Shown piece by piece: positions 8,568 to 60,612 of a stretch of 64,000 bases of DNA. Under the pieces are notes generated by a model. The model was not told the origin of the DNA. It did not search any database and was given only the letters and a program-made list of their open reading frames with translations. The stretch spans positions 17,200 to 81,199 of the forward strand of contig JAEUSM010000011.1 of NCBI GenBank assembly GCA_016788785.1, given 5' to 3'. This stretch comes from Candidatus Kapaibacterium sp. GTDB lineage: Bacteria; Bacteroidota; Ignavibacteria; Kapaibacteriales; JAEUSM01. Numbering within the stretch: position 1 is the stretch's first letter; each line of letters opens with the position of its first letter. Made by a program: the position numbers and the translations under genes.

Positions 8568-8951
8568 TTAGAGTGATGATAAAAATGATTGTTCGGCTGC
8601 AGAACGTAGTGAAAGGTGAGAGGGAAGTGCTGTTGGCACTTGCGAAGTAGTTGTTTGTTTCGTTGACTGAAAGTATTCCAACACCGTTGCAATAGCCGTT
8701 GGATTATATTCTAACAGCGTTTTCACTGCATTCGATACATCTTCATTTAACGCAGGGTAATACCCTTTGTGAAGAAAGTCAGTAACGTGTTGATTAATTA
8801 CATCGGAAGAAGTCTTTTCAAACGCAGAAGATTGAATTTTTTCCAATTCAACTTCAATTGTTTTCATTTCTTCAGAATTTGAAACTAAGGAATGTTGTTC
8901 CTCATTATCACCAAAAAATTTGTCCACCAATGAGCGGATAGTGGTTAGCAT
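8568..8951 (-). CDS. hypothetical acidic alpha-helical protein (scaffold-like?)
   Basis: 127 aa, acidic, predicted helical; first gene of the capsid-like operon. Confidence 0.3.
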   Translation of the reverse strand: MLTTIRSLVDKFFGDNEEQHSLVSNSEEMKTIEVELEKIQSSAFEKTSSDVINQHVTDFLHKGYYPALNEDVSNAVKTLLEYNPTAIATVLEYFQSTKQTTTSQVPTALPSHLSLRSAAEQSFLSSL

Positions 8952-9100
8952 ACTGTGTACTTTCGGTAGGATTTACAAAATTGTGAATGCAATCTACTAC
9001 GGAGTGAAAGTTGGATTTGGCTATAAGTGTTGGGAGGGGGGGGAATGTTTCTTTACATCAAGATGGGCATTTTGACAACGATGAACCTTTTGACAACGAT

Positions 9101-9217
9101 GGGCTTACACCCATCGCTGAGATAGTACGCCCTTTCAGGGCTTGATGTTGTTTTTTTTAATGTGCGTTTTCACGATGGGCTTACACCCTTCGCTGAGATA
9201 GTACGCCCTTTCAGGGC
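9101..9217 (-). repeat. REP doublet (two copies of gggcttacaccc[a/t]tcgctgagatagtacgccctttcagggct)
   Basis: Two near-identical 42-nt double-hairpin units at 9101..9142 and 9176..9217, in direct orientation. They are the reverse complement of the REP units at 9770..9882. Confidence 0.85.
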
Positions 9218-9688: not shown

Positions 9689-9769
9689 TTCTCTTCTCTT
9701 AAATGAATATTGATTCTATTTTTTCATCTTGACGATATTCAAAACAAAAGATGTAAATCAAGCCCTGAA

Positions 9770-9882
9770 AGGGCGTACTATATCAGCATAGGGTGTAAGC
9801 CCTATGTTGATAAATGTATTGTCATTTCAGTAAATCAAGCCCTGAAAGGGCGTATTGTATCAGCATAGGGTGTAAGCCCTAT
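9770..9882 (+). repeat. REP doublet (agccctgaaagggcgta[c/t]t[a/g]tatcagcatagggtgtaagccctatg)
   Basis: Units at 9770..9805 and 9837..9882. Each unit forms two hairpins (gccc-tgaaa-gggc and cataggg-tgtaa-gccctatg). Confidence 0.85.
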
Positions 9883-9890
9883 GCTGAAAC

Positions 9891-10523
9891 CTAAAATATT
9901 GGCTTTAGGTATTCCCAACCTTCGGCTCGCATATCAGTCCAAGAAAAACCGTCGGTGTCGTTACCGGGCATAACGAAGACTGCATCTGAAATACAAGTGG
10001 TGAAATCAATTTGTTTGATACGTTGGAGTAATGCAGAATAGGTTGTGCGGTCATTGATTGCGGATTCTTCGACAGAATCCGCAAATTCACTGAGTTTTTT
10101 GAAGGAGTTTTTTTGTTGAAGCAAAAAAAGTATTGACACTACGATGTAGTGTTTGTCGATGTCAATTCGGTCGGTATCGTTCCAATCTTCAGTTGCACCA
10201 CCTGTTTCTTGGTCTATGGAAGAAGAATCAATATCATCAACCCATTGATTGAACTCTTGTTCGGCTGTTTGTGGGTTATCAATGACATCCCAATATCCAT
10301 ATTCTGCGAAAGGGAGTAATTCCAAAAGCACATCCGAAGTTTCTTTATAGAATTTCCACTTTTGTCCAGCAGTTTGCTCTGACGGAATTGCTGCAATGGC
10401 AGAATGGATTCGTTCGCGAATATTATCTTCAACCGAATTGAGAATTACTAATTGTAACCCTACAAATCCAGATTCGTCTTCGTTAGCACCAAACAGTGCT
10501 TTAAACATTCCTTTAAACTTCAT
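9891..10523 (-). CDS. hypothetical acidic protein
   Basis: 210 aa, acidic (D/E/W-rich middle), no recognisable motif. First-listed gene of the three-gene unknown cluster. Confidence 0.4.
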   Translation of the reverse strand: MKFKGMFKALFGANEDESGFVGLQLVILNSVEDNIRERIHSAIAAIPSEQTAGQKWKFYKETSDVLLELLPFAEYGYWDVIDNPQTAEQEFNQWVDDIDSSSIDQETGGATEDWNDTDRIDIDKHYIVVSILFLLQQKNSFKKLSEFADSVEESAINDRTTYSALLQRIKQIDFTTCISDAVFVMPGNDTDGFSWTDMRAEGWEYLKPIF

Positions 10524-10535
10524 ATTTTCAGTTAC

Positions 10536-12161
10536 TTACGAGAAGAATCCACCACCACGTGAGCGTCCGAAAGATCCTGAACGAGTGCCGCCTCCAGAAC
10601 GGTAAGCAGAACGGAATGAAGAACCAAAACCAACTGTTTTTCCTGTTGCCATTGAACGATTGACGGTTACTTTGCCAAAACCAGTAGGGCGAGTTTTTCC
10701 AAATCCACCCTTTCCTCCTACTGAACGTGATGCAAAAGAGGTTGTTCTACGTGCAGGAGAATAATTTGGTGCTGATGCATAACGATTGTAAGCACCCGAT
10801 GGAATCGATGTTCTATAATATGAACGATACATTGGGTAATGATAGAAAAAGAACATAGAACCCATTGGAGAACCACCATAATAATAATTCGTTGCATATT
10901 GACCAGTTCTATTTGGATTTTGGTTTGCTGCAGCAACTTGTTCTTTTGTTTCTTCAAATCGAGAAATTGGTAGTAATGCTACTTGAATTCCTTTTTCACG
11001 ATAGGTTGCAAATTCTTCGTTTATATCATCTTTTTCAATTTCTAATTCCGAAGGGGTAATATACACTACATTAGTAATGCCAGCAGATTTCAATTCATCA
11101 ACTGTAGGCAAATCTACATTATAGCGATTGTCAAAATTACCTTCTTTGATTGGTTTTAACTTCCCATCTTTTTCGGATTCAAATCTATTTCTATCCAAAA
11201 GCATCACTGTCGCACGTTTTTTCGCAGTATTTTTTGCTTTTTCACGTTCAACATAGGATGCATAATAAAGAGAAGTAGCCAAGGTTTCATGAGCAGGAAC
11301 TTCGCCTAATGGGTGAGGCCAGTTATTGAATGTTGGAATCAAGTCTGCAACATCCGCTAATGCAGCACCAACTGCAACTGATTCCCAACCTTTTAAGTCA
11401 ACCACAACCAAATTTACTTCAGGATTTTGAGCGTCCAAAAGAATTTGACGAACGCCTAACCCTTTGTTGAAGGTAGTTTTGGTAATCTGATTTGCTGAGG
11501 CTTTCATTTGAGTTTGTAAGGTTTTTTGACCTAATGACTCATACAATGAAGCGGAACTATATTTTTTGAAACGCTCGTTTGAAGGCATATAGACCTTCTT
11601 GAGCATATCAGGATTTTTGTACTTATTCCATTGAGAAGATGGCATTCCCATGTAATCCATTTCTGTAGGTGCATTGAATGCAACTTTTAAATCATCTGCA
11701 CCGGTATCCCAACCTTCTTTTTTCTGCAAGGCAACGGAATCTTCTTCTGTAACAGTAACATCATCATCGTCATCTGAGACACATTGATATAGTAGATACC
11801 CTGCTAAAATTGTACCACCTGACCATGCTAATACTTTTCCTAAAGCTTTACGACGAGAAACTGGTTTTGCCTCTGAAAAAGACGACACATTTTCACCACT
11901 ACTTCCACTTGAAGAACGAATGGTATCCAATGCTTGATAATAAATCCAATAATAATTATGATCTCGTTCATTATCCAATTGATGCATTACATATTCATCT
12001 GGAAATGCGTCAATAGTTTCGTCATCAAATTCAACTAAAATTTGGTTATCTTCAATTTCACTAACACGTCCTGTCCATCCGGACATATCAATTTCAGTTT
12101 CTTTGTCATGGAACCCAGGCTTGATCTTTACAGGTGTACCTACAGTTAAATTGTGGCTCAT
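10536..12161 (-). CDS. hypothetical membrane-anchored protein with conserved central domain and RGG/YG-rich C-terminal tail
   Basis: 541 aa. One TM helix (res ~110-130), a DDDDD linker, and a central ~150-aa domain paralogous to the next gene (motifs NWPHPLG, LLD.NR, N..YITP). The C-terminal ~130 aa is Gly/Ser/Arg/Tyr/Phe-rich low complexity. Confidence 0.5.
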   Translation of the reverse strand: MSHNLTVGTPVKIKPGFHDKETEIDMSGWTGRVSEIEDNQILVEFDDETIDAFPDEYVMHQLDNERDHNYYWIYYQALDTIRSSSGSSGENVSSFSEAKPVSRRKALGKVLAWSGGTILAGYLLYQCVSDDDDDVTVTEEDSVALQKKEGWDTGADDLKVAFNAPTEMDYMGMPSSQWNKYKNPDMLKKVYMPSNERFKKYSSASLYESLGQKTLQTQMKASANQITKTTFNKGLGVRQILLDAQNPEVNLVVVDLKGWESVAVGAALADVADLIPTFNNWPHPLGEVPAHETLATSLYYASYVEREKAKNTAKKRATVMLLDRNRFESEKDGKLKPIKEGNFDNRYNVDLPTVDELKSAGITNVVYITPSELEIEKDDINEEFATYREKGIQVALLPISRFEETKEQVAAANQNPNRTGQYATNYYYGGSPMGSMFFFYHYPMYRSYYRTSIPSGAYNRYASAPNYSPARRTTSFASRSVGGKGGFGKTRPTGFGKVTVNRSMATGKTVGFGSSFRSAYRSGGGTRSGSFGRSRGGGFFS

Positions 12162-16810: not shown

Positions 16811-17894
16811 AACAGAAGACAATTTTTTAGGTGCATTTCTTGGTGCAGCTATTGGAGACGCATTGGGCTCACCTTTGGAAACGATGTCGATGATACAAAT
16901 CGAACGACGTTTTGGGAAAGGTGGAATAACCCAATTTATGCGTAACCAAGAGCTTTTGGGTGCAATTTCCGATGACACACAAATGGCTCTGTTTACCGCA
17001 GAAAGTCTTTTGCAGTCGCTTTCTCAAACTAAGGGTGTTGAGCGATCGAATATCAATTATATCGACGCCACTTACTTGGGAGCAATGCGTTGGTTACGCT
17101 CTCAAAATTTGATGTCAGAGCAATCAGATTATAAATTTGCAAATCAGGTCTATGGTGCTTCTTGGCTTACCCGAGTAAAAGATTTGTTTGTCCAAAGAAA
17201 TCCCAATGAAACGATCATTAATGCTCTGCGTTTTGGAATAATAGGAACTCCCACAAAACCTACAAACAATAGTAAATCTCCAATGGGGATGGTACGTTTG
17301 ATGCCAGTTGGATTATTCTTTGATGATTACAAAAAAGCATTTGCCATTGCAATGGAAGGAGCTGCTTCAACGGGTGGACATTACTCTGGTTATCTTTCTG
17401 CTGGGTTTTATGCAGCGTTTTTAACATTGTTGCGTGAGGGTTCACCGTTTGAAGATGCACTTAGAATTGCCATAGAACATTTACAAACCTACCGTAATCA
17501 TCACGAAATCACCCATGCATTGACCAATTGTACGAATGTTATCAATAGCAATGTTGAGCCATCTTTGAAAGTAGTCGAAAGCCTTGGTTCAGGTTGGGTT
17601 GCGGAAGAAGTATTATCCTTAAGTTTATATTGTGCATATATGTTTAAGGAAAATTTCGAAAAAGCAGTCCTTCTTTCAGTTAACCACGGTGGTGATAGCG
17701 ATACGTGTGGTTTTATCACCGGTAGCATCGTTGGACTTTTAGTTGGTGAACAACAAATACCTGAACATTTCAAAAAAGACCTTGAGTTTCGTTTAGTTAT
17801 CTCACAAATAGCAAAGGATTTCCTTATTCGCTATGAAGGAACCGAAGAATGGGTGAAAAAATACCCAGGTGGTTCACAAAGCCTTATCGTATAA
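16800..17894 (+). CDS. ADP-ribosylglycohydrolase family protein (DraG-like)
   Basis: N-terminal LGAFLGAAIGDALGSPLE is the canonical ARH motif; 364 aa; overlaps the tyrS stop by 11 bp. Confidence 0.8.
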   Translation: MSLRTEDNFLGAFLGAAIGDALGSPLETMSMIQIERRFGKGGITQFMRNQELLGAISDDTQMALFTAESLLQSLSQTKGVERSNINYIDATYLGAMRWLRSQNLMSEQSDYKFANQVYGASWLTRVKDLFVQRNPNETIINALRFGIIGTPTKPTNNSKSPMGMVRLMPVGLFFDDYKKAFAIAMEGAASTGGHYSGYLSAGFYAAFLTLLREGSPFEDALRIAIEHLQTYRNHHEITHALTNCTNVINSNVEPSLKVVESLGSGWVAEEVLSLSLYCAYMFKENFEKAVLLSVNHGGDSDTCGFITGSIVGLLVGEQQIPEHFKKDLEFRLVISQIAKDFLIRYEGTEEWVKKYPGGSQSLIV

Positions 17895-25378: not shown

Positions 25379-25439
25379 AACGATTTTTAAAGTAGTTATG
25401 AAAACTGCAAAATAGACAAAAATTACGATATAGAAGCAA

Positions 25440-25910
25440 ATTTTCTTATTTTCTATGATCTAAGAACAACAATCAGAATCGTAGAGACGCCCTATATGTG
25501 TGTTTCAAGCTGAGAACGGTCTAGCCCTGAAAGGGCGTATTATATAAGCATAGGGTGTAAGCCCTATGATGAAAGCCCCTCTTTCCCTAACCCTCTCCCC
25601 AAGGGGCGAGGGAAAAATCTATTTTTTTCAATGTAGACTTACTCCCTAAATTTTTTGTTTACAAACAATAACAACTCCCTCTCCCCTTTGGGGAGAGGGT
25701 ACGGGGAGAGGGGTGATTTTATGGTTGTTTCCTTCTTTCTATAAATATCTGACTACTACGTGGTCAAGAATCATTCACTTCACACGTAAAGACGCCCTAT
25801 ATGGGCGTCTCATACAAAAAATCACACATAACAACTCCTTCGCCCCTTGGGGGAGAGGGTAAGCAGAGAGTGGATGTTTTTTATATTTTTCTGGAGTTTC
25901 TAACTACTCA
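25440..25910. repeat. repeat-rich intergenic region (REP copy plus several other GC-rich palindromes)
   Basis: REP unit at 25523..25568. Perfect palindrome agacgccctatatgggcgtct at 25785..25805, with a half-copy near 25485. Two copies of aacaactcc.tc.cccctttggggagagggta hairpins near 25673 and 25831. Confidence 0.8.
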
Positions 25911-25927
25911 AATGAAGATAGATTCTT

Positions 25928-25989
25928 TTTCGTGCGATTGCTTTTGCGGATAGAATGGAGCTTTTTTTGTTCGGCTTCTTGGCGTTTGA
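25928..25989. repeat. 62-bp direct repeat, copy A (duplicate of arfB 3' end)
   Basis: 61/62 identical to 30233..30294, which lies inside the arfB coding 3' end. Confidence 0.9.
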
Positions 25990-26015
25990 AAAAATGAAAA
26001 TGTTACCCCAATTGA

Positions 26016-26831
26016 TTAAGTATTTACTGATTGATATATTGCTTTCTCTTCTAAAAAAATTTTTAGTTGATCGTCTTGATTTATTAACTTTTCGGAGTAA
26101 GCGACTTTACCACCATTTGCTGATATTCCGTTTATTCTGGTCTGAGCAATTTCTAAATATTCTTGACTTATTTCAAAACCAATAAAATTTCGCTTAAGTC
26201 TTTTGGCAATAACTCCTGTAGTTCCACTTCCTGTGAATGGGTCAAGAATTGTGTCGCCCTGTTTGCTACCTAACAATATAATTCTTTCTAAAAGTGTTTC
26301 TGGTTTTTCTGTTGGATGTGAAGTTTTGTGTCTTTCTGCATTAATTTCCCATAGGTTTCTCATTTGCTTTCCTCCGTTTATCATTTTTGCAGTAACGTAA
26401 TCAAAGTAATATTTCTTTGTTTTACTTGCAACCCAAATAAGCTCAGTTGATGGTGCAAGCCGATTTTTTGATAACAAAGGTGCAGCATTTTTTTTGTACC
26501 AAATCACATCATTTATTATCCACAAATTTAACTTTTTCAGAATTACACCAATTGACGGATGATTATGTAAAGTTCCTGAAATCCATATTGTACCATCGTC
26601 TGCCAAAACACGAATACACTCTTTTACCCAAGATTCATTGAATTCATGAATGTCGTCAATAATATCCCAATCTCCTTTATCACAAGTAACCATTTTACCA
26701 CTTTGTACGGTTTGAAATGTTGCTCCCGACAAATTGTAAGGTGGGTCAGCAAAAATTTGATTAATGCTACCAGAAGGTAATTTTTTTAGGAGTTCAACGC
26801 AATTACCCAGGTGTAATTTTATATCAGACAT
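26016..26831 (-). CDS. DNA methyltransferase, beta-class N6A/N4C (motif IV DPPY ... motif I FxGxG)
   Basis: FADPPYNLSG near the N-terminus; ILDPFTGSGTTG near the C-terminus; 271 aa. Confidence 0.85.
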   Translation of the reverse strand: MSDIKLHLGNCVELLKKLPSGSINQIFADPPYNLSGATFQTVQSGKMVTCDKGDWDIIDDIHEFNESWVKECIRVLADDGTIWISGTLHNHPSIGVILKKLNLWIINDVIWYKKNAAPLLSKNRLAPSTELIWVASKTKKYYFDYVTAKMINGGKQMRNLWEINAERHKTSHPTEKPETLLERIILLGSKQGDTILDPFTGSGTTGVIAKRLKRNFIGFEISQEYLEIAQTRINGISANGGKVAYSEKLINQDDQLKIFLEEKAIYQSVNT

Positions 26832-27621
26832 ATTCTTCCGTTTTTGGGGTTAATCGTTCTTCAGCTATTTTCAAATAGTCAGAATTATTCTCTATTCCAA
26901 TCCAATTTCGATTTAATTTTCTTGCCACAAAACCTGTTGTTCCTGTTCCAAAAAATGGGTCAAGTATAGTATCATTTTCATTTGATGATGCTTTAATAAT
27001 TAACTCCAAAAGCCTTTCAGGTTTTTGTGTTGGGTGCAAAGCACGACCTTTTTCTCCTCGTAATCTTTCTCTTCCTTGAACGATTGGAAGTTCAATAAAA
27101 TCTAGAAAATCACGCATTTGCTTATCTTTTCCCTCTTTGGTTTTATTGTGATTGAATTTTTTAACTTCATCATAATTAAAAACCCAATTTTTACCTTTGA
27201 CAAACCAACAAACAAATTCAGTTGAATGTGTGTAAGTTCGTTTTGTGATGTTTGGCATTGCGTTCACTTTATACCAAGTTAAAATGTTATTCAACTTGAA
27301 GCCAATTTTTTTTGCTTCTACTACAATTTCGCCAATGTTATGCTGAGTACACGAAATATAAAGACTTCCGTTAGGTAATAAAATTCTATGGCTTGCTTTT
27401 AACCAATCAGCTGTAAACTTTAAATAATCATCATAATTAAACGTGTCCCAATCTTCATTTACTTTGTAAAATGCTCCGCCTGTTTTATTGTTTTCAAGTT
27501 TTAAAGAATTTCCCGAAAGATTATAAGGAGGGTCGGCAAAAATCAGATGTATAGAATTATCAACAATATATTTGTTGATGATTTCAATACAATCACCATT
27601 ATGTATTTTATTCAATTCCAT
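26824..27621 (-). CDS. DNA methyltransferase, beta-class N6A/N4C (paralog of the downstream MTase)
   Basis: FADPPYNLSGN and ILDPFFGTGTTG; 265 aa; 8-bp overlap with the next MTase; shares its start position with the stop of the putative REase. Confidence 0.85.
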   Translation of the reverse strand: MELNKIHNGDCIEIINKYIVDNSIHLIFADPPYNLSGNSLKLENNKTGGAFYKVNEDWDTFNYDDYLKFTADWLKASHRILLPNGSLYISCTQHNIGEIVVEAKKIGFKLNNILTWYKVNAMPNITKRTYTHSTEFVCWFVKGKNWVFNYDEVKKFNHNKTKEGKDKQMRDFLDFIELPIVQGRERLRGEKGRALHPTQKPERLLELIIKASSNENDTILDPFFGTGTTGFVARKLNRNWIGIENNSDYLKIAEERLTPKTEEYV

Positions 27622-29630
27622 TATGAAAATATTGGGTTAACTTCGTTTGTGTACCATTTGAAACCGTCTTTGGTTTCTGAATTTAAAACTGATTCAAACT
27701 TATTTTCAAGTTTGTTGAAATCATTTTCTTTTTTCAATAGATAAATCATATTTGAAAGAGACAATGGTAGAATATTCATTGATTCTACGATATTTCCATC
27801 AGAATTATACCAAGATGAAAATTTATAATTACGTAAAACAACTAAATTGTTTGGGTCAAGTTGACCTGCAACAAATAATGTTAAACTATTTGGATTGACT
27901 TTTAAAATGTGTTTTGCTAAATGTCGAGGAATAGGTTCAGCTTCCATTTTGCGTTGTCCATCATTTTCGCTCAAAGTTGCCTCAATTAAATAGTCAGTAT
28001 CTTTGCAACGAACTACAATGTCGGCTTGACCTCCTGCTGTATGAGTTTTTGGTAAAAGGTTTGCATCTAATCCTGAATTGAGAATATCGGTGATTCTAAC
28101 TTGCTTTTCAGAAAGCCAATAAAATGAAATTCCCAATAAATATTCAAACAGAGCCGGAATTGTTGCTTCGTATTCTTGATACCATTCTTTTATGAGTTTA
28201 CGTATTAGGTCGTCTTTTCTTGGATATATATTTTCAAATATTTTGACTATGTTTTCTTTTGTGAAAACACTATGTACTAATTTTAATAAACGTTCTTCTT
28301 TTTTCTTTAAAACAAAGCTTTGTAAACCAAGTTTCTTTACTTCTGGGAAATCAGTCTCAATTTGTTTAGAAAGTTCGGCAACATTAATTTTCAAGAAATC
28401 GTATATGTCTCCAATATTTTTTTGACTTAATTCTAGTTTTTTTGAGTATTCACTCTGAGAAAGTGTATTTACTTTTAGTAATTCATCTTTTACAGATTTG
28501 AATAAGTACCAAAATACAAGGTCAAGTTTTAATTTCCCGTGTTCAAAAACGAAAATATCCAACAACTTTAAATGCCTTGTATTTAAATCTCTATACTCCT
28601 CACAAAGAGAAAGTTTTTTGATATACATATACAAAACGTGAAAATTAATTACAAAATTTTCTTCGTCTTTTGATGAGATTAAAGACGTATTCTCAAAAAA
28701 TGTTATAATTTTTTTCCAATCCGAAGAATTATTTAAAGTCGTTGTATTAAACAAACTTTCTAGATAATAACTTGGTTTTTTACTAGAAATATCCCTATAT
28801 CTTAACTTTAATTTGTCTTGTATGAACTTTTTCTTATTAGTTTCATTCCAGCTTTTTTTATTCAACCAATAGCAATAAATGTCGTTAAAAAGACTAATTG
28901 TTTTGTCTTTAAAAGTATTCCCTTTTCCGTGAGGAAGAATTGCGTACAAAAGTTCTTTAAGCTCTTTTTTGTCAGAAATATTATGTGCATTAAAAAAAAA
29001 CGAAGAATTTTTTGTAGTAATTTTTGTATTTTCTGAATTTAGTATAGATTGATAAAGAGTTTCTTTATAATCCGAATGTTTTTTATAGTTGTTTATGTTG
29101 TCAATCAGTTCTTCTTTTGTTTGAGAACCTGACCAAACATAAGTAACGAAATCAATCGACAATTCGTTATTAAATTCAATGATTGCATATATTAGAGAAA
29201 GTAAGGGATAAACTTTAAAATCATTTTGCTGATATTTCAAAAACTGTTTTAAGTATGTAAAACTTTCGTTTGAAATATTAAATTCATTAGTTTCAAAGTT
29301 TAAAGAATTTACTAATAACTCCTTACCAGCACTTGTGATAATTCGTTTGTCTGTTGTAAAGCCTAACTGTGAAATAAAGCCAGTCTTTACTCTTACATCC
29401 TTATCTGAACTAACTTTGTTATCTGTTTTAATGTCAAAAATTCCAAGTTTACCTAACAATTCTCCAAACTTTGTCTGGTCTGTTGTTTCCCAATGTTTAT
29501 TTAGGTTTCTGAACTCTACAAGTGCTTTCAAAATTTTAACATAGGTTGCTCTCGGGTCGCTTAATCTTGCTCCAGTGTTGCCCAAAGATATTAAGCCACT
29601 ATTTGCTGTTATTTTTTTAAAATCGCTCAT
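27621..29630 (-). CDS. putative restriction endonuclease, Type IIS-like by context
   Basis: 669 aa, very Lys/Asn/Phe/Ile-rich, no ATPase or MTase motifs. Possible PD-(D/E)xK-like segment near the C-terminus (QADIVVRCKDTDYLIEATLSE). Co-oriented and abutting two MTases. The call rests mainly on context. Confidence 0.45.
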   Translation of the reverse strand: MSDFKKITANSGLISLGNTGARLSDPRATYVKILKALVEFRNLNKHWETTDQTKFGELLGKLGIFDIKTDNKVSSDKDVRVKTGFISQLGFTTDKRIITSAGKELLVNSLNFETNEFNISNESFTYLKQFLKYQQNDFKVYPLLSLIYAIIEFNNELSIDFVTYVWSGSQTKEELIDNINNYKKHSDYKETLYQSILNSENTKITTKNSSFFFNAHNISDKKELKELLYAILPHGKGNTFKDKTISLFNDIYCYWLNKKSWNETNKKKFIQDKLKLRYRDISSKKPSYYLESLFNTTTLNNSSDWKKIITFFENTSLISSKDEENFVINFHVLYMYIKKLSLCEEYRDLNTRHLKLLDIFVFEHGKLKLDLVFWYLFKSVKDELLKVNTLSQSEYSKKLELSQKNIGDIYDFLKINVAELSKQIETDFPEVKKLGLQSFVLKKKEERLLKLVHSVFTKENIVKIFENIYPRKDDLIRKLIKEWYQEYEATIPALFEYLLGISFYWLSEKQVRITDILNSGLDANLLPKTHTAGGQADIVVRCKDTDYLIEATLSENDGQRKMEAEPIPRHLAKHILKVNPNSLTLFVAGQLDPNNLVVLRNYKFSSWYNSDGNIVESMNILPLSLSNMIYLLKKENDFNKLENKFESVLNSETKDGFKWYTNEVNPIFS

Positions 29631-29932
29631 ATTAAAAATGCAACTCGTCTTGATTGACTTTTATATTTTCGATAATTTACTTTTACTTCTGCTATAATAA
29701 CCGAATCAGAAAAGTAATTATTTGCATATATTTTTATGCGAATTGGTATCAAAGATTTTCTATTTTCAATTATACAATGTCATCTCTTTTTTATGTTCTA
29801 CTTTCAAAAAAAGCTATATTTTAAGACAGTCATAGAGAAAGTATGGTCATAAGTTGAAGGTATTTTAACACAATAATATACAAACATACAACATTAGTCT
29901 GTAATTGACAATAGAGTGAAAAATTTATAAAC

Positions 29933-30200
29933 AAAAGATTTCCACCCCGCCCTTCGGGTACCTCTCAAGAGGGGAACCTATGTTGTTACGATTGTTTGAA
30001 CAAAAGATTTCCACCCCGCCCTTCGGGCACCCCTCAAGAGGGGAACCAATGTTGATAGGATTGTTTGACCAAAAGATTTCCACTCCGCTCTTCGGGCACA
30101 CCTCAAGAGGGAACCCATGTTGATACGATTGTCGACGAAAAGATTTCCACCCCGCCCTTCGGGCACCCCTCAAGAGGGCAACCTATGTTGATGTTGTAAA
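29933..30200. repeat. tandem array of 4 x ~69-bp GC-rich hairpin repeats
   Basis: Units begin at 29933, 30002, 30071 and 30138 (aaaagatttccaccccgcccttcgggcacccctcaagaggggaacc.atgttgat...). Each contains gccc-ttcg-gggc (UUCG-type tetraloop) and cccctcaagagggg. The units are degenerate copies with no unique spacers. Confidence 0.85.
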
Positions 30201-30211
30201 TTTTTTTACTT

Positions 30212-30562
30212 CTATTCTTCTGTGAACCTTGGTTTCGTGCGATTGCTTTTGAGGATAGAATGGAGCTTTTTTTGTTCGGCTTCTTGGCGTTTGACGCTGT
30301 GGGATTTGAAGGTGGCAATGCGAATTTTGCGTTTTTTCTCGCGTTCTTTGATGATGGCGAGAACCTTTTTTGCTGCTAAGAGCTTATTGAGGTATTGGCT
30401 TCGTTCTTGTTGAGCCGTTACGACAATACCCGTTGGATGATGAAAAAGGCGAACTGCTGTTTCAACCTTGTTGACATGCTGTCCGCCCTTTCCAGAAGCT
30501 CGAAATGTTTGAAGAGTTGAGGCTTCTAATATCGCCTCAACTTCTTCTTTTTTTGTTATCAT
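30212..30562 (-). CDS. arfB: alternative ribosome-rescue factor / peptidyl-tRNA hydrolase ArfB (YaeJ-like)
   Basis: GGQ motif in [17 protein letters not shown]; basic C-terminal tail; 116 aa. Its last ~20 codons are the 62-bp repeat, copy B. Confidence 0.8.
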
Positions 30563-32265
30563 TACAGTTTTGAATCATCAATAGTTTCTAACCAACGTTC
30601 TGCTTCTTGCACCACTGAAATAATGGTTGATTCTTCAAATGGAGAATCTAATCCAGCAAGTTTGACTAACTCCAAAAATGGAAGTGAACCACCTGCTTGG
30701 CATAAACGAACATAATCGCTCCAAGCACCATCTTTTGTTGCAGGATTTTGCGATTTGATCCAAAATTGCAATGCGCATAATTGTGCAAGGACATAATCAA
30801 TATAATAAAATGGAGATTGATAAATATGTGCTTGACGTTGCCAAAATCCACCCATTTCTAAATATTCGTTATCGGTATATTTGCGGTGTGGCAAATATTT
30901 CGCCTCCATTGCTTTCCATGTACTGTGTCGCTCTGCAGGTGTCATCGATGGATTGTTATAGATATGATGTTGGAATTCATCGACTGCGGATCCATACGGA
31001 ATGAAACGCAATGCGTTCGAAAGATGATCGTAAAAATACTTGTTTGCATCTTCTTTGAAGAATGACTCCATCCAATTCCATGCAAAAAACTCCATACTCA
31101 TAGAATGAATTTCACATGCTTCGGAGGTTGGGAAAAAGTATTCTGGCACTTTATGATTGCGAGAAGAAAATGCTTGGAAAGCATGCCCAATTTCGTGCGT
31201 CAATACATCCACATCGTGTGATGTGCCATTAAAATTCGAGAAAATGAACGGTGCTCCCTCATCAGAAAGCATAGTGCAATATCCACCCGGAGCTTTTGCT
31301 GGTTTGTTCACCAAATCCATCAACTCGTATTCTTTCATAAATGTAAAGAATTCGTGCGTTTCAGGCGACATTTCTTTGTACATCACCGTTGCAGCGTCAA
31401 CGATTTGGTCGGGAGTTCCTTTAGGAGTAGGGTTCCCGTTATTAAAATGCAACAATTCATCAGTATACACCAACGAATCTAAACCAAGGCGTTTTGCTTG
31501 TTTTGCAATGATTTTTTGAGCAATTGGTACAACGTGTTTTACGATATTATTACGGAACGATTCGACTTCTTTGTGCGTATATTCGGTACGTTGCATACGT
31601 GCGTACCCAACTTCAACAAATGAATCAAACCCTAACTTTTTCGCAATGGTATTACGAGTTTTGACTAATTCATCGTAAATGGTGTCAAATTCTTCTTGAT
31701 TGTCTGAATAATACCCCCATTTTACCTTACCAGCATCAATACGAGTTTGACGGTCAAGCGATTGCTCGTAAGGCGTAAGACCACTCAAATTGAGGGTTTC
31801 ACCACGAAATTCCAGTTTCGCTTTTGATAACAATTTCTGATATTGAGTACTAAGAGAATTTTCTTTGCCTAATTCTTCTAAAATGGAATTATTAAAAGAT
31901 TTAATTCTGCAATTTGCAAGATCAAACAATTGTTTGCCAAAGTAATCACTCAAACCATCTTTGAATTTGCTTTGAACTAATGTTTCGTAAAATTGGAAAC
32001 GGAGAGATTGTAAATGCGGAGAAACTGAGTCAGAATATTTCTGTTCCGCATCATAAAATTCGTCAGATGTATCGATAGAATGACGAATTGCAACCAATTC
32101 GAATTGAGTGTCTAAAATTCTTCTGTTATTGTTAATATCAACAACGATATTGATAGCTTCTTCTAAAGTTGAAGCGTTTTTTAAATCTTGTAATTGTTTG
32201 GTGTGATGTTCTTCAAATCGTACCAAATCAGGGCGAGTATATTGTATCTCGGGAAACTTTTTCAT
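30562..32265 (-). CDS. pepF: M3-family oligoendopeptidase F
   Basis: HEIGH zinc motif (THEIGHAFQ) with a downstream Glu; 567 aa. Confidence 0.8.
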
Positions 32266-32421: not shown

Positions 32422-34470
32422 ATGACAACAAAAACACTGTTTTTTCTACCAATTTTGTTCATTGCATTTGGAGTAATGTCCTATAGTGTGTTACGATTAT
32501 TATCGTATTTGAAATTGGGCAAACCTACCAATAGATTGAACAACATATTTCAACGAATTGGAACAACCTTTGTCGTTGCAATTGGACAAAGTAAAATTTT
32601 GCGTGACAAAGTGGCTGGTCCTCTTCATGCAGGTATTTTTTGGGGATTTATGATATTACTTGCTTCTGTTGTCGAAGCAATATTAGAAGGATTGCACCAC
32701 TCTTGGTCGTTGAACTTTTTAGGTCCCATTTATAGCATCACAACTATACTTACAGATGTTTTTTGTGCCTTGATAATCACAGCCACTTTTATTGCATTGT
32801 GGCGTAGATATATCTCCAAAATCAAACGTTTGCAAGTTGATGGAGAAAAAGTAGAAGCGGCAATGATACTTATGACTATTTTTACGATAGTTTCATCGTT
32901 GCTATTGCAAAATATTGCCCGTATTCAGATGCCAAACGTAACAGGAATTGCAAATATCACTGGTCAAATGAATGGTGATTATTCGTGGGCATTTCGTCCT
33001 ATTGCCATGTCACTTGCACCACTTGTTTCACCAGAAATTGCTCCAATGCTGTTCGAAATTACCTGGTGGATTCACGTAGTGTTGGTATTAGCATTTATGA
33101 ACTACCTACCATTTTCAAAACACCTTCATGTGTTAACTTCAGTTCCAAACGTATTTTTGGGTCCATTGAAGCCTACAAATACGCTAACTGCAATCGATTT
33201 TGAAGATGAAACTATCGAGCAATACGGTGCAAAAGACATTGAAGATTTTACGTGGAAAACGCTTTTAGATGGGTATACATGTACGCATTGTGGGCGATGT
33301 ACCAGTGTTTGTCCAGCGAACCAAACTGGCAAAGTTTTAGACCCCCGAGGAATCATCGTAGCAATTCACGATCGTACAATGGACAAAGCTCCATTGCTCA
33401 TCAAACAGCAACAAGGAAAAGAACTCACTGAAGCAGAACAAGCAATTTTTGACAAAAAACTCATTGGCGATTACATTGACCCACAGGCGTTGTGGGATTG
33501 TACAACTTGCGGTGCATGTATGCAAGAATGCCCAGTGAATATTGAGCATGTTCCAGCCATTGTTGAAATGAGAAGAAACCTCATAATGATGGAAGCAGAA
33601 TTCCCTCAAGAGCTTCAACCTGCTTATTCGAATATAGAAAACAATTCAACTCCTTGGGCATTTCCACAAAGTGACCGAGCAAATTGGACACAAGAAATGG
33701 AAAATCCAGTTCAAACAGCTGCTGAAAATCCAGAATTTGATGTTCTGTTTTGGGTAGGATGTGCTGGAAGTTATGACGAACGTGCAAAGAAAACCACCAA
33801 AGCGTTTGCTGAGCTTATGCAGATTGCAGGAGTGAATTTTGCGATTTTGGGTACAGAAGAGCATTGCTCAGCTGACCCAGCTCGTCGAAGTGGTAATGAA
33901 TTTTTGGCAAATTCTTTTGTAACCATGAATGTTGAGACGATGAATGGTTATAATGTTTCCAAAATCGTTACAACATGCCCACACTGCTTCAATACACTGA
34001 AAAATGAGTACCCACAATTTGGTGGAAACTATGATGTTCAACATCATACACAATTTATTTACGATCTCATTCATACAGGTAAATTACTCATAGATAAAAC
34101 AACTGTATCTTCAGATACATTATCGTATCACGATTCTTGTTACTTAGGTAGATACAATGATGAATATTACTCTCCACGTGCTCTTTTGACCGATGTACCG
34201 GGACTAACAGTGTTAGAAGTACCTCGTTCGAAAGACAAAGGACTTTGCTGTGGAGCTGGTGGAGCAAGAATGTTTATGGAAGAAACAGTTGGAAAACGCG
34301 TTAATATTGAACGTACAGAAGAATTACTGCACAATGAGCCGACGGTCATTGCTGCAAATTGTCCGTTCTGTATGACGATGGTAACTGACGGTGTCAAAGC
34401 AGCCGAAAAAATAGATTCCGTCAAAATAAAAGACATCAGCGAGATTATGCTCGAACATGTGAAACGGTAA
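32422..34470 (+). CDS. membrane-anchored Fe-S oxidoreductase (2 x [4Fe-4S] ferredoxin motifs + CCG domains; HdrD/GlpC/DsrK-like)
   Basis: N-terminal ~6 TM helices. CTHCGRCTSVCP and CTTCGACMQECP ferredoxin motifs. Cys-rich CCG-like segments (CPHCFNTL, CCGAGG, CPFCM). 682 aa. Confidence 0.75.
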   Translation: MTTKTLFFLPILFIAFGVMSYSVLRLLSYLKLGKPTNRLNNIFQRIGTTFVVAIGQSKILRDKVAGPLHAGIFWGFMILLASVVEAILEGLHHSWSLNFLGPIYSITTILTDVFCALIITATFIALWRRYISKIKRLQVDGEKVEAAMILMTIFTIVSSLLLQNIARIQMPNVTGIANITGQMNGDYSWAFRPIAMSLAPLVSPEIAPMLFEITWWIHVVLVLAFMNYLPFSKHLHVLTSVPNVFLGPLKPTNTLTAIDFEDETIEQYGAKDIEDFTWKTLLDGYTCTHCGRCTSVCPANQTGKVLDPRGIIVAIHDRTMDKAPLLIKQQQGKELTEAEQAIFDKKLIGDYIDPQALWDCTTCGACMQECPVNIEHVPAIVEMRRNLIMMEAEFPQELQPAYSNIENNSTPWAFPQSDRANWTQEMENPVQTAAENPEFDVLFWVGCAGSYDERAKKTTKAFAELMQIAGVNFAILGTEEHCSADPARRSGNEFLANSFVTMNVETMNGYNVSKIVTTCPHCFNTLKNEYPQFGGNYDVQHHTQFIYDLIHTGKLLIDKTTVSSDTLSYHDSCYLGRYNDEYYSPRALLTDVPGLTVLEVPRSKDKGLCCGAGGARMFMEETVGKRVNIERTEELLHNEPTVIAANCPFCMTMVTDGVKAAEKIDSVKIKDISEIMLEHVKR

Positions 34471-34472
34471 TC
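34431..34472. repeat. 42-bp direct repeat, copy 1 (native 3' end of the Fe-S oxidoreductase gene, includes its stop)
   Basis: Identical to 36917..36958. Confidence 0.9.
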
Positions 34473-34633
34473 TTTAATAAAATTAAGTAACAACTATAGG
34501 TAAACAAATCAATTATTCTCAATCTAAAAGTAATTTACGATATTGATTTGAATAATTTTAGATAAGAATTACATTAGATTCGAGAAACTAACTTTTTTTA
34601 AACAATAACTGTCGAGTTACAGAAACATCAATA

Positions 34634-35731
34634 ATGTTCCAAGAAAAAAATGACGTTATAACAGCTAAAAGTTTTGTTAGCAATAAACATTTTGAAACTA
34701 ATATTACAAATGGATCTATTGTTAAACCAATTAATTTTATCAATGAGTTTGAAATAGTACCTTTTCCACCAATTGACAATTACAACTTTACCTTTATAGA
34801 TTTGTTTGCTGGAATTGGAGGATTTCGATTAGCTTTACAAAACATAGGAGGTAAATGTTTATATACAAGTGAATGGAATAGTGATGCAAAGATAACCTAC
34901 AGTTTAAATTTTGGCGAAGTTCCTTTTGGAGATATCACTAATGACTTAAATAAAAGTTATATACCTCAAAGTTTTGAAATCTTGTGTGCGGGTTTTCCAT
35001 GCCAAGCTTTTTCAATAGCAGGGTACAGAAAGGGATTTGCAGATACAAGAGGCACATTGTTTTTTGATATTGAGCAAATTGTTGAAAGACACAGACCAAA
35101 AGTTGTTTTTTTAGAAAACGTAAAAAACTTGGTTTCTCATGATAAAGGGAATACATTTAAAACAATTATTGAAACCCTTGAAGATAAACTTGGATATAAA
35201 ACATTTGCAAAAGTTTTAAATACTGCAGATTATGCAAATGTTCCACAGAACCGTGAAAGAATATTTATAGTTGCTTTTGATACTGCTCAAGTTCAAAATT
35301 TCAAAAAATTCCAATTTCCTCAACCTATTCGTCTAACAAAATCCATACATGATTTTTTGGAAAAAGAAAAGCAGGATGATATATTCTATTACAAAGAAAA
35401 TCATCCATATTATACAAAACTTGAAAAGTCAATTATTTCAAAAGACACTATGTATCAGTGGAGACGTACTTATGTAAGAGAGAATAAAAGTAATCTTTGT
35501 CCTACATTAACAGCGAATATGGGATCTGGTGGACACAATGTTCCATTAATAAAAGATAATTTTGGAATTCGGAAACTCACACCGAAAGAATGTTTTGCTT
35601 TACAAGGTTACCCAATTGATAAATATATAATTCCCAATATTGCTAATAGTAAGTTATATATGCAAGCTGGAAATTCTGTGACAACTACACTTGTTGAGAG
35701 AATTGCAAACCAAATAATTAAAGTTTTATGA
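34634..35731 (+). CDS. dcm: DNA (cytosine-5)-methyltransferase
   Basis: Motif I FAGIGG; motif IV PCQAFS (catalytic Cys); motif VI ENV (FLENVKNL); C-terminal QAGNSV. Confidence 0.9.
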   Translation: MFQEKNDVITAKSFVSNKHFETNITNGSIVKPINFINEFEIVPFPPIDNYNFTFIDLFAGIGGFRLALQNIGGKCLYTSEWNSDAKITYSLNFGEVPFGDITNDLNKSYIPQSFEILCAGFPCQAFSIAGYRKGFADTRGTLFFDIEQIVERHRPKVVFLENVKNLVSHDKGNTFKTIIETLEDKLGYKTFAKVLNTADYANVPQNRERIFIVAFDTAQVQNFKKFQFPQPIRLTKSIHDFLEKEKQDDIFYYKENHPYYTKLEKSIISKDTMYQWRRTYVRENKSNLCPTLTANMGSGGHNVPLIKDNFGIRKLTPKECFALQGYPIDKYIIPNIANSKLYMQAGNSVTTTLVERIANQIIKVL

Positions 35732-36867
35732 CCTCATTTGCTGAGCTTGATCAAGAAAGAAATGGTGATTATTTGAATTTGCTTACAGCAGTTTCTAAGC
35801 TATCAGGCTTGTTTAGTGAAAGTGTAGTTCCATTTATTAACTATCGTGTTATTGAAAATATTTTTTGCAAAAGTTTTCAAGCGGAAAATCTATCTCGTTC
35901 AGATACTGCATTTGATGCAAAACTAGATTCTTTGGGTGTTGGAATAAAGACATTTGTCAGTAATTCAAATAATAGTACGGAAAAAATAGCAGAATTTAAT
36001 TCCCTTTCAAGAGATTTATCGAAATTTTCTGGAAAAGAACTTGCTCTGAAATTAGGTGAATTTAGAAACGAGAGAATTAATTTAGCAAAACGAGTGTATA
36101 ATATCGAAAGTTCATTATACCATATAATTGTAAGAAAAGCAAAAGAGTTGTTACTCTTTGAAACCGATTATAATATAATTGATATCACTAACATTAATTC
36201 AATAAAAGATTCTAAAGCAAGCTTACAATTTTCAGATGGGAAAAATTTTTACACATACAATTATTCTAAAAGCACTCTTTTTAGAAATTTTCAAATTCCA
36301 CCTACAGCATTTAGTTTACATGTTGATATCATTCAAGATCCATATTCTTTATTGCTTCAGATTTTAAACGAATTCAAAGGAATACATGTATCAAACAATA
36401 GACTTGTTAAAGGTGAAAATTTCATAGTTTTACCACTTTATGGAATTAAGAATAATGAAAAATTTATTTTTCAACATAGTGGATTAAATCAATGGAATGC
36501 AAATGGTAGAAAAAGAAACATAGGAGAAGTTTACATTCCAATTCCAATTTCTATTCACAAAAATTATCCTAATTTCTTTCCATCAAGAGATTTTCCTTTT
36601 GATTTACAAATTCCAACTGGTGAAGTTTTTTCTGCAAAAGTTTGTCAAGCTAATTCAAAAGCCCTAATGACAAATCCCAATAAAGCTCTTTCAGATTGGC
36701 TTTTGCGGAAGATTTTACAATTAAAAGAAGGAGAATTAGCAACCATGGAAAAATTAGATGCTTTAGGGTTTGATAGTGTGTTAATTCACAAAATTAATGA
36801 TGGTAAATATACAATCGACATTATGAAAACTAATTCGTACAGTGATTTTGATAGTGAAAACTATTAA
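35728..36867 (+). CDS. putative Type II restriction endonuclease partner of the C5-MTase
   Basis: 379 aa; start overlaps the dcm stop (ATGA); possible PD..D/ExK-like segment (FDAKLDSLGVGIKT). Family not recognisable by eye. Confidence 0.5.
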   Translation: MTSFAELDQERNGDYLNLLTAVSKLSGLFSESVVPFINYRVIENIFCKSFQAENLSRSDTAFDAKLDSLGVGIKTFVSNSNNSTEKIAEFNSLSRDLSKFSGKELALKLGEFRNERINLAKRVYNIESSLYHIIVRKAKELLLFETDYNIIDITNINSIKDSKASLQFSDGKNFYTYNYSKSTLFRNFQIPPTAFSLHVDIIQDPYSLLLQILNEFKGIHVSNNRLVKGENFIVLPLYGIKNNEKFIFQHSGLNQWNANGRKRNIGEVYIPIPISIHKNYPNFFPSRDFPFDLQIPTGEVFSAKVCQANSKALMTNPNKALSDWLLRKILQLKEGELATMEKLDALGFDSVLIHKINDGKYTIDIMKTNSYSDFDSENY

Positions 36868-36916
36868 TCTACCATTAATGAAATATTGTTAAGCCCTATC
36901 ACATAAAATATATAAT

Positions 36917-36958
36917 AGACATCAGCGAGATTATGCTCGAACATGTGAAACGGTAATC
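36917..36958. repeat. 42-bp direct repeat, copy 2
   Basis: Identical to 34431..34472, although no gene ends here. Confidence 0.9.
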
Positions 36959-55204: not shown

Positions 55205-55346
55205 CTAACTAATTGCTAATTACAAAAATTTTTTGAAACTTCCAAATTTTTCTTGAATTATTTTTCGTTAGGTGAAAATATTCTTGATATTGTTTTTCAA
55301 TATTGACCAAAACTAACTATTGAAAAGGATATGTTTTTCTTATCTT

Positions 55347-55565
55347 GTCTGAATCAGGATTTGCAGGATTTGAGGATTAGCAGGATACTAAAGAAAATGT
55401 CTGAATCAGGATTTGCAAGATTTGTGGATAAGTAGGATACGAAAGAAAATGTCTGAATCAGGATTTGCAGGATTTGAGGATTAGCAGGACTTCTTTCTTA
55501 TCCTGTCAATCTTTTAATCCTATAAATCCTGATTCAGACAAATGTAAATCCTGATTCAGACAAAA
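55347..55565. repeat. palindromic repeat element, family 2 (3 direct ~58-bp units + inverted arm)
   Basis: Three direct copies of tgtctgaatcaggatttgcaggatttgaggattagcaggatac... followed by the inverted arm ttatcctgtcaatcttttaatcctataaatcctgattcagacaaatgtaaatcctgattcagacaaa. Homologous to 52568..52681. Confidence 0.85.
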
Positions 55566-60528: not shown

Positions 60529-60612
60529 AGTTCAAATAGTTATGTAAAAAGGAAGAAAGTTTCGTAAATATACAAAAAGCCATTCTAATGAATGGCTTTT
60601 TAAATTTTAAAG

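Follow-up and report, generated by a model that had tools for sequence, protein, structure and literature searches.

A restriction-modification (RM) cassette lies next to an ArfB-like gene (arfB) on contig JAEUSM010000011.1 of Candidatus Kapaibacterium sp. (Bacteroidota), and the stretch analysed here in full, 64,000 nucleotides corresponding to positions 17,200–81,199 of that contig, is called the window. Coordinates are those of the window, and the genes, repeats, tails and spacer of the arfB locus are all on the minus strand. Two direct copies of a 62-bp sequence, at 25928..25989 and 30233..30294, agree at 61 of 62 positions, are separated by 4,243 bp, and lose their likeness sharply at either edge. 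A first-pass annotation of this DNA had given the same positions and identity, which direct comparison bore out, and had described the right copy as the last ~20 codons of arfB; it does lie in the 3′ region of the functional gene, where it covers codons 90–110 of 116 with PRFTEE and a stop codon beyond it. The left copy is an orphan arfB 3′ fragment that abuts the 3′ tail of the cassette. The sole mismatch between them is a G in the left copy, in an Arg codon that is the state of all relatives, and a T (Leu) at 30252 in the right copy, which reads as an Arg-to-Leu change in the functional copy with the orphan copy retaining the ancestral state. With up to three mismatches allowed, the 62-mer matched the window twice (expectation of 0 from 100 shuffles), and the occurrence at many unrelated loci that a dispersed repeat would give did not show up in the window or in any fetched locus. 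The conserved 21-mer at the 3′ end of the 62-mer, with one position left free, was found exactly only in the arfB genes of two relatives (L034 and L051) among the fetched loci. No inverted-repeat pair brackets the block, inverted matches being weak (70–86% over 20–38 nt), and thus the terminal inverted repeats with short target duplication that mark insertion sequences, composite transposons or inverted-repeat-flanked RM units were not found.

The block between the copies contains the RM genes. The methyltransferases M1 (271 aa, 26016..26831) and M2 (265 aa, 26824..27621) match PF01555 (E = 5e-56 and 2e-58, respectively), are 39% identical and both have the DPPY...FxGxG order of beta-class N6/N4 DNA methyltransferases. 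The adjoining R gene (669 aa, 27621..29630) encodes an AlwI-family type IIS endonuclease that matched PF09491 (RE_AlwI, E = 1e-37) with 130 bits against a cut-off of 23, the alignment covering profile positions 1–441 of 441 and residues 87–631. When the specificity of R was sought from solved structures, the C-terminal part aligned with those of N.BspD6I (E = 4e-7), a distant match and the only one. The presence of two separate methyltransferases is consistent with an asymmetric recognition site, at which R and the two strand-specific methyltransferases are predicted to restrict and protect. The 62-mer as read off the sequence contains neither GAGTC nor GGATC, and therefore nothing hints at repeat edges set by the sites of characterised family members. 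Upstream of R, the degenerate 3′ half of a controller gene (C, helix-turn-helix [HTH]) lies at 29631..29782, and homology to every other cassette copy ends, on the 5′ side, at 29782. Past M1, the cassette has a 3′ tail of its own (25990..26015) that is conserved in four contigs from elsewhere (L053, L065, L067, and L070) and meets arfB at a CAAAC microhomology. An old arfB fragment within this native tail was considered as well, and 1 of 20 comparisons (L065) stood above shuffles, which was kept as possible junction microhomology. The domain search found no integrase or transposase domain among the open reading frames (ORFs) of the block, which also has no tRNA, the sole tRNA of the window being at 60612; the recombinase and att site typical of an integrase-mediated island were not found. 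Domain and repeat searches thus agreed with the annotated content of the block (two paralogous beta-class methyltransferases, a 669-aa endonuclease, a 4 × 69-bp array, and no integrase, transposase or tRNA). The GC content of the RM genes ranges between 0.29 and 0.33 as compared with 0.37–0.43 in flanking genes, and is 0.30 overall against 0.357 in the window. The tetranucleotide distance of the block from the rest of the window lies 7 standard deviations above that of same-sized chunks (z = 7), and the comparison of composition proposed with the first-pass annotation therefore came out in favour of foreign DNA.

The ArfB-like gene (30212..30562) is intact and codes for a 116-aa protein with an RF-1/GGQ domain (PF00472, 82 bits against a cut-off of 35). 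The same protein scored 58 bits with the NCBIfam ArfB model NF006718 against a cut-off of 100, and the name arfB is used here for what appears to be an ArfB-like RF-1/GGQ-domain protein falling below the NCBI ArfB cut-off. The alternative ribosome-rescue factor B (ArfB) of E. coli has 140 aa. An exact-product look-up with the window protein returned no record. Searching with pepF, the neighbouring M3 peptidase gene, retrieved Candidatus Kapaibacterium contigs in which the order from a 682-aa Fe-S protein through pepF and arfB to a 1572-aa VWA-domain protein and onward is kept. The ends of arfB in these relatives are of two types. The P-type tail is KPRFTEE in the functional gene of the window and in L034, KPNFSEE in L052/P0003 and L053, and KPNIDND in L001; the K-type tail is KKNLSSFE in L051/P0001 and similar in L046 and P0004. 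Both are genuine arfB ends, and their distribution is discordant with the similarity of the rest of the gene. The window has both: the P-type tail PRFTEE plus stop (30212..30232) is outside the repeat and inside the block, and a K-type remnant, KNLSSFE plus stop (25904..25927), follows the left copy and has exactly the sequence with which the genuine arfB of L051 ends.

The check for an empty site proposed in the first-pass annotation was carried out on these relatives and gave single-copy sites without the cassette in four of them. The closest, L051, whose pepF/arfB stretch is 96.5–96.7% identical to that of the window at the DNA level over 10 kb, runs from arfB through the K tail into the spacer, where the contig stops. 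In L046 (80% identity over the pepF/arfB stretch) arfB leads into the spacer and the VWA-domain gene, and in L001 and L035 (77%) it is followed by an 88-bp spacer without a K tail. Each empty site has one copy of the 62-bp segment, that of L051 aligning to both window copies over 10277–10330, and the arrangement that would have spoken against an insertion, RM-less relatives with both copies, was not encountered. The relative L034 (87.5%) has a different RM pair at the same position. This pair, at 12061–13995 of L034 downstream of arfB, consists of a 261-aa ORF and a 315-aa N6/N4 methyltransferase; the ORF shares 63% identity with an endonuclease annotated on Acinetobacter junii plasmid NZ_CP028799. 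No second arfB fragment and no flanking repeat was found around the pair in L034, and its occupied allele has in common with that of the window only the arfB P tail and 6 bp. The analysis demonstrated a presence/absence polymorphism against a genome about 96.5% identical, the horizontal acquisition of an RM module at the arfB site, the duplication of an arfB segment, and the allelic substitution of RM systems at this site, which behaves as a hot spot for them.

The DNA between the right copy and the cassette was then compared with the same relatives. A 69-bp tandem array of 3.8–4 copies (29930..30203) follows the P tail; its unit occurs nowhere else in the window, a diverged unit sits 3′ of the P tail in L052, and L053 has a possible degenerate remnant as judged by eye. 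Neither the PRFTEE tail with its stop nor the array was found in cassette copies from other hosts. Because they trail arfB in relatives and are absent from the module elsewhere, the P tail and the array are probably not cargo and would represent an alternative arfB 3′ allele that is native. The DNA at the inner edge of the right copy accordingly does not look foreign, the 21 bp after it and the array matching arfB flanks (the tail in L034, L052, and L053, and the array in L052). The array was also considered as a known structured RNA; Rfam gave no match to it even at E up to 1, folding was no better than that of shuffled sequences (z = +0.87), and three units fit a terminator-like pattern, these matches being at the level of pattern. 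Between the array and the cassette, an AT-rich segment of 147 bp (29783..29929) stands in place of the 5′ half of the controller gene and of the DNA upstream of that gene, and has no match in any relative or in other cassette copies. On the other side, past the K-type remnant, the native spacer between arfB and the VWA-domain gene (25379..25903) contains GC-rich palindromes and one Acido-Lenti-1 motif, and this spacer is about 550 bp in the window as against 88 bp in L001. The palindromes, of the CCCTCTCCCC-N-GGGGAGAGGG type in direct and inverted orientation, fill 25576–25873 and are common to L034, L046, and L051. The Rfam family Acido-Lenti-1 (RF01687) matched the window four times, at 25523–25568 (minus strand), 9097–9142 (plus), 9761–9806 (minus), and 9838–9883 (minus), with 42–49 bits against a gathering score of 37, and the matches, one of them in the arfB/VWA-domain spacer, resemble a dispersed intergenic repeat of this Kapaibacterium.

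The cassette belongs to a family with members in many other hosts. Homologues of R with 80–94% identity number more than 60 in public assemblies, and more than 100 R homologues were found in public metagenomes. In the contigs of seven homologues, a conserved C(HTH)-R-M-M module was 84–92% identical at the DNA level to window positions 29782–26034, and the module's 3′ tail is conserved for about 140 bp past M1. The neighbourhoods are unrelated to one another and include AbiE or GntR genes, DUF1573/DKNYY genes, glpD and rsmD-like genes, and a NIF3/Zn-ribbon defence island beside an MmeI-type system. The composition of the RM genes and this distribution point to a foreign and very mobile module. 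In a search for plasmid or phage vectors, catalogued homologues were found only at about 24% identity. In other hosts the controller is an intact gene of 108 aa abutting R. It appears to be decaying in Kapaibacteria, where the window keeps the 3′ half only and L053 (678–1046) has premature stops leaving a 76-aa ORF. In L070, and also in L071, the module lies between direct repeats of 169 bp that are 94% identical (8883–9051 and 14051–14219 of L070), and it is intergenic between glpD-like and rsmD-like genes of an unrelated Bacteroidota-like genome. Long flanking repeats round the module were not found in L055–58, L066, L067, and L073. Dozens of module-bearing short-read contigs are 4.0–4.4 kb long, about the size of the module (L065, 4,313 bp; L072, 4,368 bp; L069, 4,284 bp), and L072 ends within ~70 bp of the conserved module boundaries seen in the longer L070. 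Because the contigs are near module size and the ends of L072 near its boundaries, this suggests that the module occupies several contexts within single samples.

The insertion named in the first-pass annotation was considered in the form of a fresh in-situ event in a recent ancestor, with the 62 bp duplicated as the target of a staggered break and all of 25990–30232 being insert. The sharp repeat edges, the 61/62 identity of the copies, and the empty L051 site with its one copy agree with this model, and it fits cleanly the second RM cassette of the window (described below), whose 47-bp copies match that of L051 except for one or two end bases and one mismatch between the copies. At the arfB locus, however, both window copies differ from the single L051 copy at 11–14 of 62 positions (identity of 48–50/62) and the 21 bp upstream of the repeat differ at 10 of 21, yet the 244 bp past the left copy (25927–25684) differ from L051 at one base and are 99.6% identical. 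With copies unlike that of L051 next to DNA of such identity, a simple duplication of an L051-type target does not yield them. A fresh insert would also have to bring in a genuine arfB tail and the array, which trail arfB in relatives and are absent elsewhere in the module, and the model does not account for an identical junction in the distant L053 (below). A fresh insertion is thus an unlikely account of this locus.

Approaching the junction, the identity between the window and L051 is 100% over the 5′ 900 bp of pepF (32265–31366), ~90% in patches of pepF, 94–96% in arfB, 52–77% at the junction, and 99.6% beyond. This flank reads as a recombination mosaic. Two pepF patches of ~150 bp (31216–31365 and 30616–30765) are 89–90% identical to L051 inside DNA of 99–100% identity and look like short recombination imports. 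Whether the imported flank belongs to the window or to L051 was asked by a sliding-window comparison, and the polarity came out ambiguous.

The arfB-linked arrangement was also found in L053 and L054, independent assemblies from other samples, in the order arfB, repeat, P tail, C, R, M2, M1, repeat, K tail, spacer and VWA-domain gene. The RM genes of L053 are 92–94% identical to those of the window, as compared with 78% for arfB and 70% for the VWA-domain gene. L053 and the window share the junction between the M1 tail and TCAAACGC at the same nucleotide (TTTTTT/CAAACGC). Because L053, with a backbone only 70–78% identical, has the same junction, the founding event was not private to the window genome. 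The second copy of L053 is composite: its first 11 bp are nearer to the arfB of the window than to its own, and over its other 51 bp it agrees with the arfB of L053 (47/48). Since the copies are alike within each genome (61/62 in the window and 47/48 in L053) and diverged between genomes, their identity is not a clock, and the earlier reading of the single mismatch as the sign of an event that was not very recent had to be given up, the mismatch saying little about age.

The L053 contig bears on three further explanations. In the first, a circle carrying the 62 bp, the P tail, the array and the RM genes would be excised in a donor and re-integrate by a single, Campbell-type crossover into an empty arfB of the K type. 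This predicts the P tail beside arfB and the K tail past the second copy, as seen in both the window and L053, as well as hybrid copies, and in L053 the second copy is donor-like and then recipient-like and the first copy starts recipient-like. Such a cycle would also regenerate the repeat each time, and a "virus-like cycle" is the hypothesis of Kobayashi's group as stated in PMC2853133. It predicts, however, that the remainder of the first copy is of the donor type, whereas 47/48 (L053) and 61/62 (window) were observed between copies, and a stretch of 62 bp mismatched at ~20% of positions would be ill suited to a single crossover. No circular or tandem junction was observed, no search aimed at one having been made; we regard the circle model as quite unlikely. 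In the second, the cassette would be ancestral and the empty sites the product of later deletions. Direct repeats can delete the DNA between them, and the K tail after the single copy in L051 and L046 would fit. The single copies of L051 and L046 are not of the window type, however, and L001 and L035, the furthest removed of the relatives, also lack the cassette and have 88 bp of spacer without a K tail. The foreign composition, the same module in unrelated hosts, and the discordance in L053 between RM genes (92–94%) and backbone (70–78%) also argue against it, which makes an ancestral cassette very unlikely. In the third, the structure would be a chimeric assembly path through the 62-mer shared by RM-bearing and empty strains, an idea favoured by the apparent origin of the window from a metagenome assembly and by the Logan contigs of SRR12144710, which are identical to the window and end in the repeats. 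L053, an independent Joint Genome Institute (JGI) contig, spans arfB through the VWA-domain gene in one piece, and the junction of the M1 tail with an arfB fragment is impossible from a chimera of RM-bearing and empty strains, which renders an artefact extremely improbable.

The explanation that we favour, with moderate confidence and a probability of roughly 0.6, is a founding illegitimate join at arfB codon 90, after which homologous recombination would have spread the structure and the copies would have been homogenised. A recombinase-free type IIS module of ~3.8 kb (controller remnant, R, M2, and M1 of the AlwI family) was acquired horizontally, and in a genome with a window-type arfB a single illegitimate event would have joined the module's 3′ tail to arfB codon 90 at CAAAC. 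On the upstream side arfB would have remained whole, while an orphan piece of its 3′ end came to lie downstream of the module, and the "long target duplication" would consist in this. The present arrangement is arfB ending in the 62 bp, P tail, hairpin array, RM genes, 62 bp, K tail and spacer, in which arfB stays intact and carries one of two natural tail alleles, and the module is read in the direction of arfB, downstream of the array. Homologous recombination, acting through the arfB/pepF flank on one side and the orphan fragment and spacer on the other, would then have carried the structure from one Kapaibacterium lineage to another, with gene conversion or crossovers inside the repeat keeping the two copies alike within each genome, and the arfB 3′ site would act as an RM hot spot with allelic substitution. 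The founding event itself may have been a staggered-break duplication, homology-facilitated illegitimate recombination (HFIR) with a donor of the P type and a recipient of the K type, or a longer duplication, in which the 62 bp, tail and hairpin would have been duplicated together and the second copy later partly replaced by a K-type allele.

Several points weigh against this explanation. That gene conversion acts between 62-bp repeats lying 4.3 kb from each other is an assumption. The junction microhomology is only 5 bp (CAAAC), and the similarity of the L065 tail to the arfB of the window (25/30) is borderline, with z = 3.9 in 1 of 20 tests. Over the last 84 bp of arfB, L051 and L046 are 92% identical against a typical 80%, whereas the window and L034 show their typical 88%, and the imported patch may thus be in L051 rather than in the window. 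The arfB-linked structure was compared in one other lineage (L053/L054), and the Logan contigs L032 and L033 (SRR12144710), which match the window exactly, end inside the repeats and the array, so that linkage in the window rests on the given assembly.

A bolder version would make the module an autonomous recombinase-free mobile unit in which breaks with a wide stagger come from the AlwI/N.BspD6I-like nuclease or nickase that it encodes, with the arfB 3′ end as a preferred landing site where the tail alleles keep ArfB functional. Self-made staggered breaks, if real, would explain long duplications of unrelated targets (62 bp of arfB and 169 bp in L070), and the more than 100 near-identical metagenomic copies could make the 25-year-old question of the origin of long duplications directly testable. 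We hold this version to be doubtful.

A second RM cassette with a GC content of 0.29 occupies 34426–36958 of the window. It consists of a C5 DNA methyltransferase (34634–35731, PF00145) and a 379-aa NgoFVII-like endonuclease (35728–36867, PF20731) between direct repeats of 47 bp (34426–34472 and 36912–36958) that are identical at 46 of 47 positions. The repeat takes in the final 42 nt of the 682-aa CCG/Fe-S gene, its stop codon and a further 2 nt. The cassette is missing from this site in L051, L034, and L001, which have one copy each, that of L051 matching both window copies apart from the last one or two bases and the mismatch between them. This cassette is a textbook case and strengthens the class assignment for this genome. 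Elsewhere in the window, a 52-bp tandem repeat of 2.8 copies (55346–55489, 90% matching) contains nested CAGGATTTG units and is adjoined by a perfect 22-bp repeat of 1.9 copies at 55523–55564.

The arfB locus was finally compared with known systems. The "insertion with long target duplication" of Kobayashi's group was delimited by the presence of R and M genes in an insert of less than 20 kb, a repeat of more than 30 bp, the absence of mobility genes, and a relative that lacks the insert and whose single copy aligns with both repeats (Furuta et al, 2010; PMC2853133). The insert at arfB holds the PF09491 endonuclease and two PF01555 methyltransferases, measures 4,243 bp and is flanked by a 62-bp repeat; the domain search gave no linked mobility gene or tRNA target, the nearest tRNA being at 60612, and L051 lacks the insert and has one copy aligning with both repeats, its identity to them being only 48–50/62. 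By these operational features the locus belongs to the class. The signature named in the first-pass annotation therefore stands as a class assignment and is borne out in part only, the repeat not being a clean private duplication and the DNA between the copies not all cargo. In the same source, the original Helicobacter pylori cases are all type IIS, like the cassette of the window, and the Haemophilus influenzae cases have 46-bp repeats overlapping the 3′ ends of genes, as do both window cassettes. The published tables show repeat-to-target identity about equal to repeat-to-repeat identity, as opposed to 48–50/62 and 61/62 here (PMC2853133). Unlike the published cases, the locus has between its repeats some DNA that probably belongs to an alternative, native arfB 3′ allele, and it shares its junction with a lineage only 70–78% identical. 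The host, an uncultivated Kapaibacterium of the Bacteroidota, is not named among the examples in the part of PMC2853133 drawn on here, and according to that text the mechanism is not known, double-strand breakage and a "virus-like cycle" being its suggestions. The replacement of one RM system by another at a single locus (allelic substitution), as treated there (Furuta et al, 2010) and in E. coli hsd, shows the same pattern as the AlwI-type module of the window and L053, the other pair of L034, and the lack of any RM genes at this site in L051, L046, and L001; unlike the window, the occupied allele of L034 has no flanking repeat.

The founding join resembles HFIR in having a homologous anchor on one side (the mosaic pepF/arfB flank) and a microhomology join (CAAAC) on the other. 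The usual outcome of HFIR is a loss of DNA from the recipient, whereas the present locus shows a duplication. The process is reportedly that of naturally transformable bacteria, as described by de Vries & Wackernagel in 2002 and by Prudhomme et al in 2002. The likeness to the AlwI/N.BspD6I/N.BstNBI family, whose type IIS endonucleases and nickases come with paired methyltransferases, lies in the full-length PF09491 match and the two separate methyltransferases; R is only 24% identical to annotated plasmid AlwI-family genes, too distant for its specificity to be read from the sequence. The host lineage, one of the Bacteroidota, is uncultivated, a genome about 96.5% identical provides the empty site, and a second, independent case lies 4 kb away in the same genome. 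The mobile module family is present in metagenomes in many copies, only part of which have long repeats, and could be mined for junction rules. Such repeats can pass between lineages and be homogenised, so their identity is an unreliable estimate of age, and the DNA between them need not all be cargo. The arfB locus thus adds a member to a known class, and its peculiarities within that class are the tail alleles, the shared junction and the homogenised copies.

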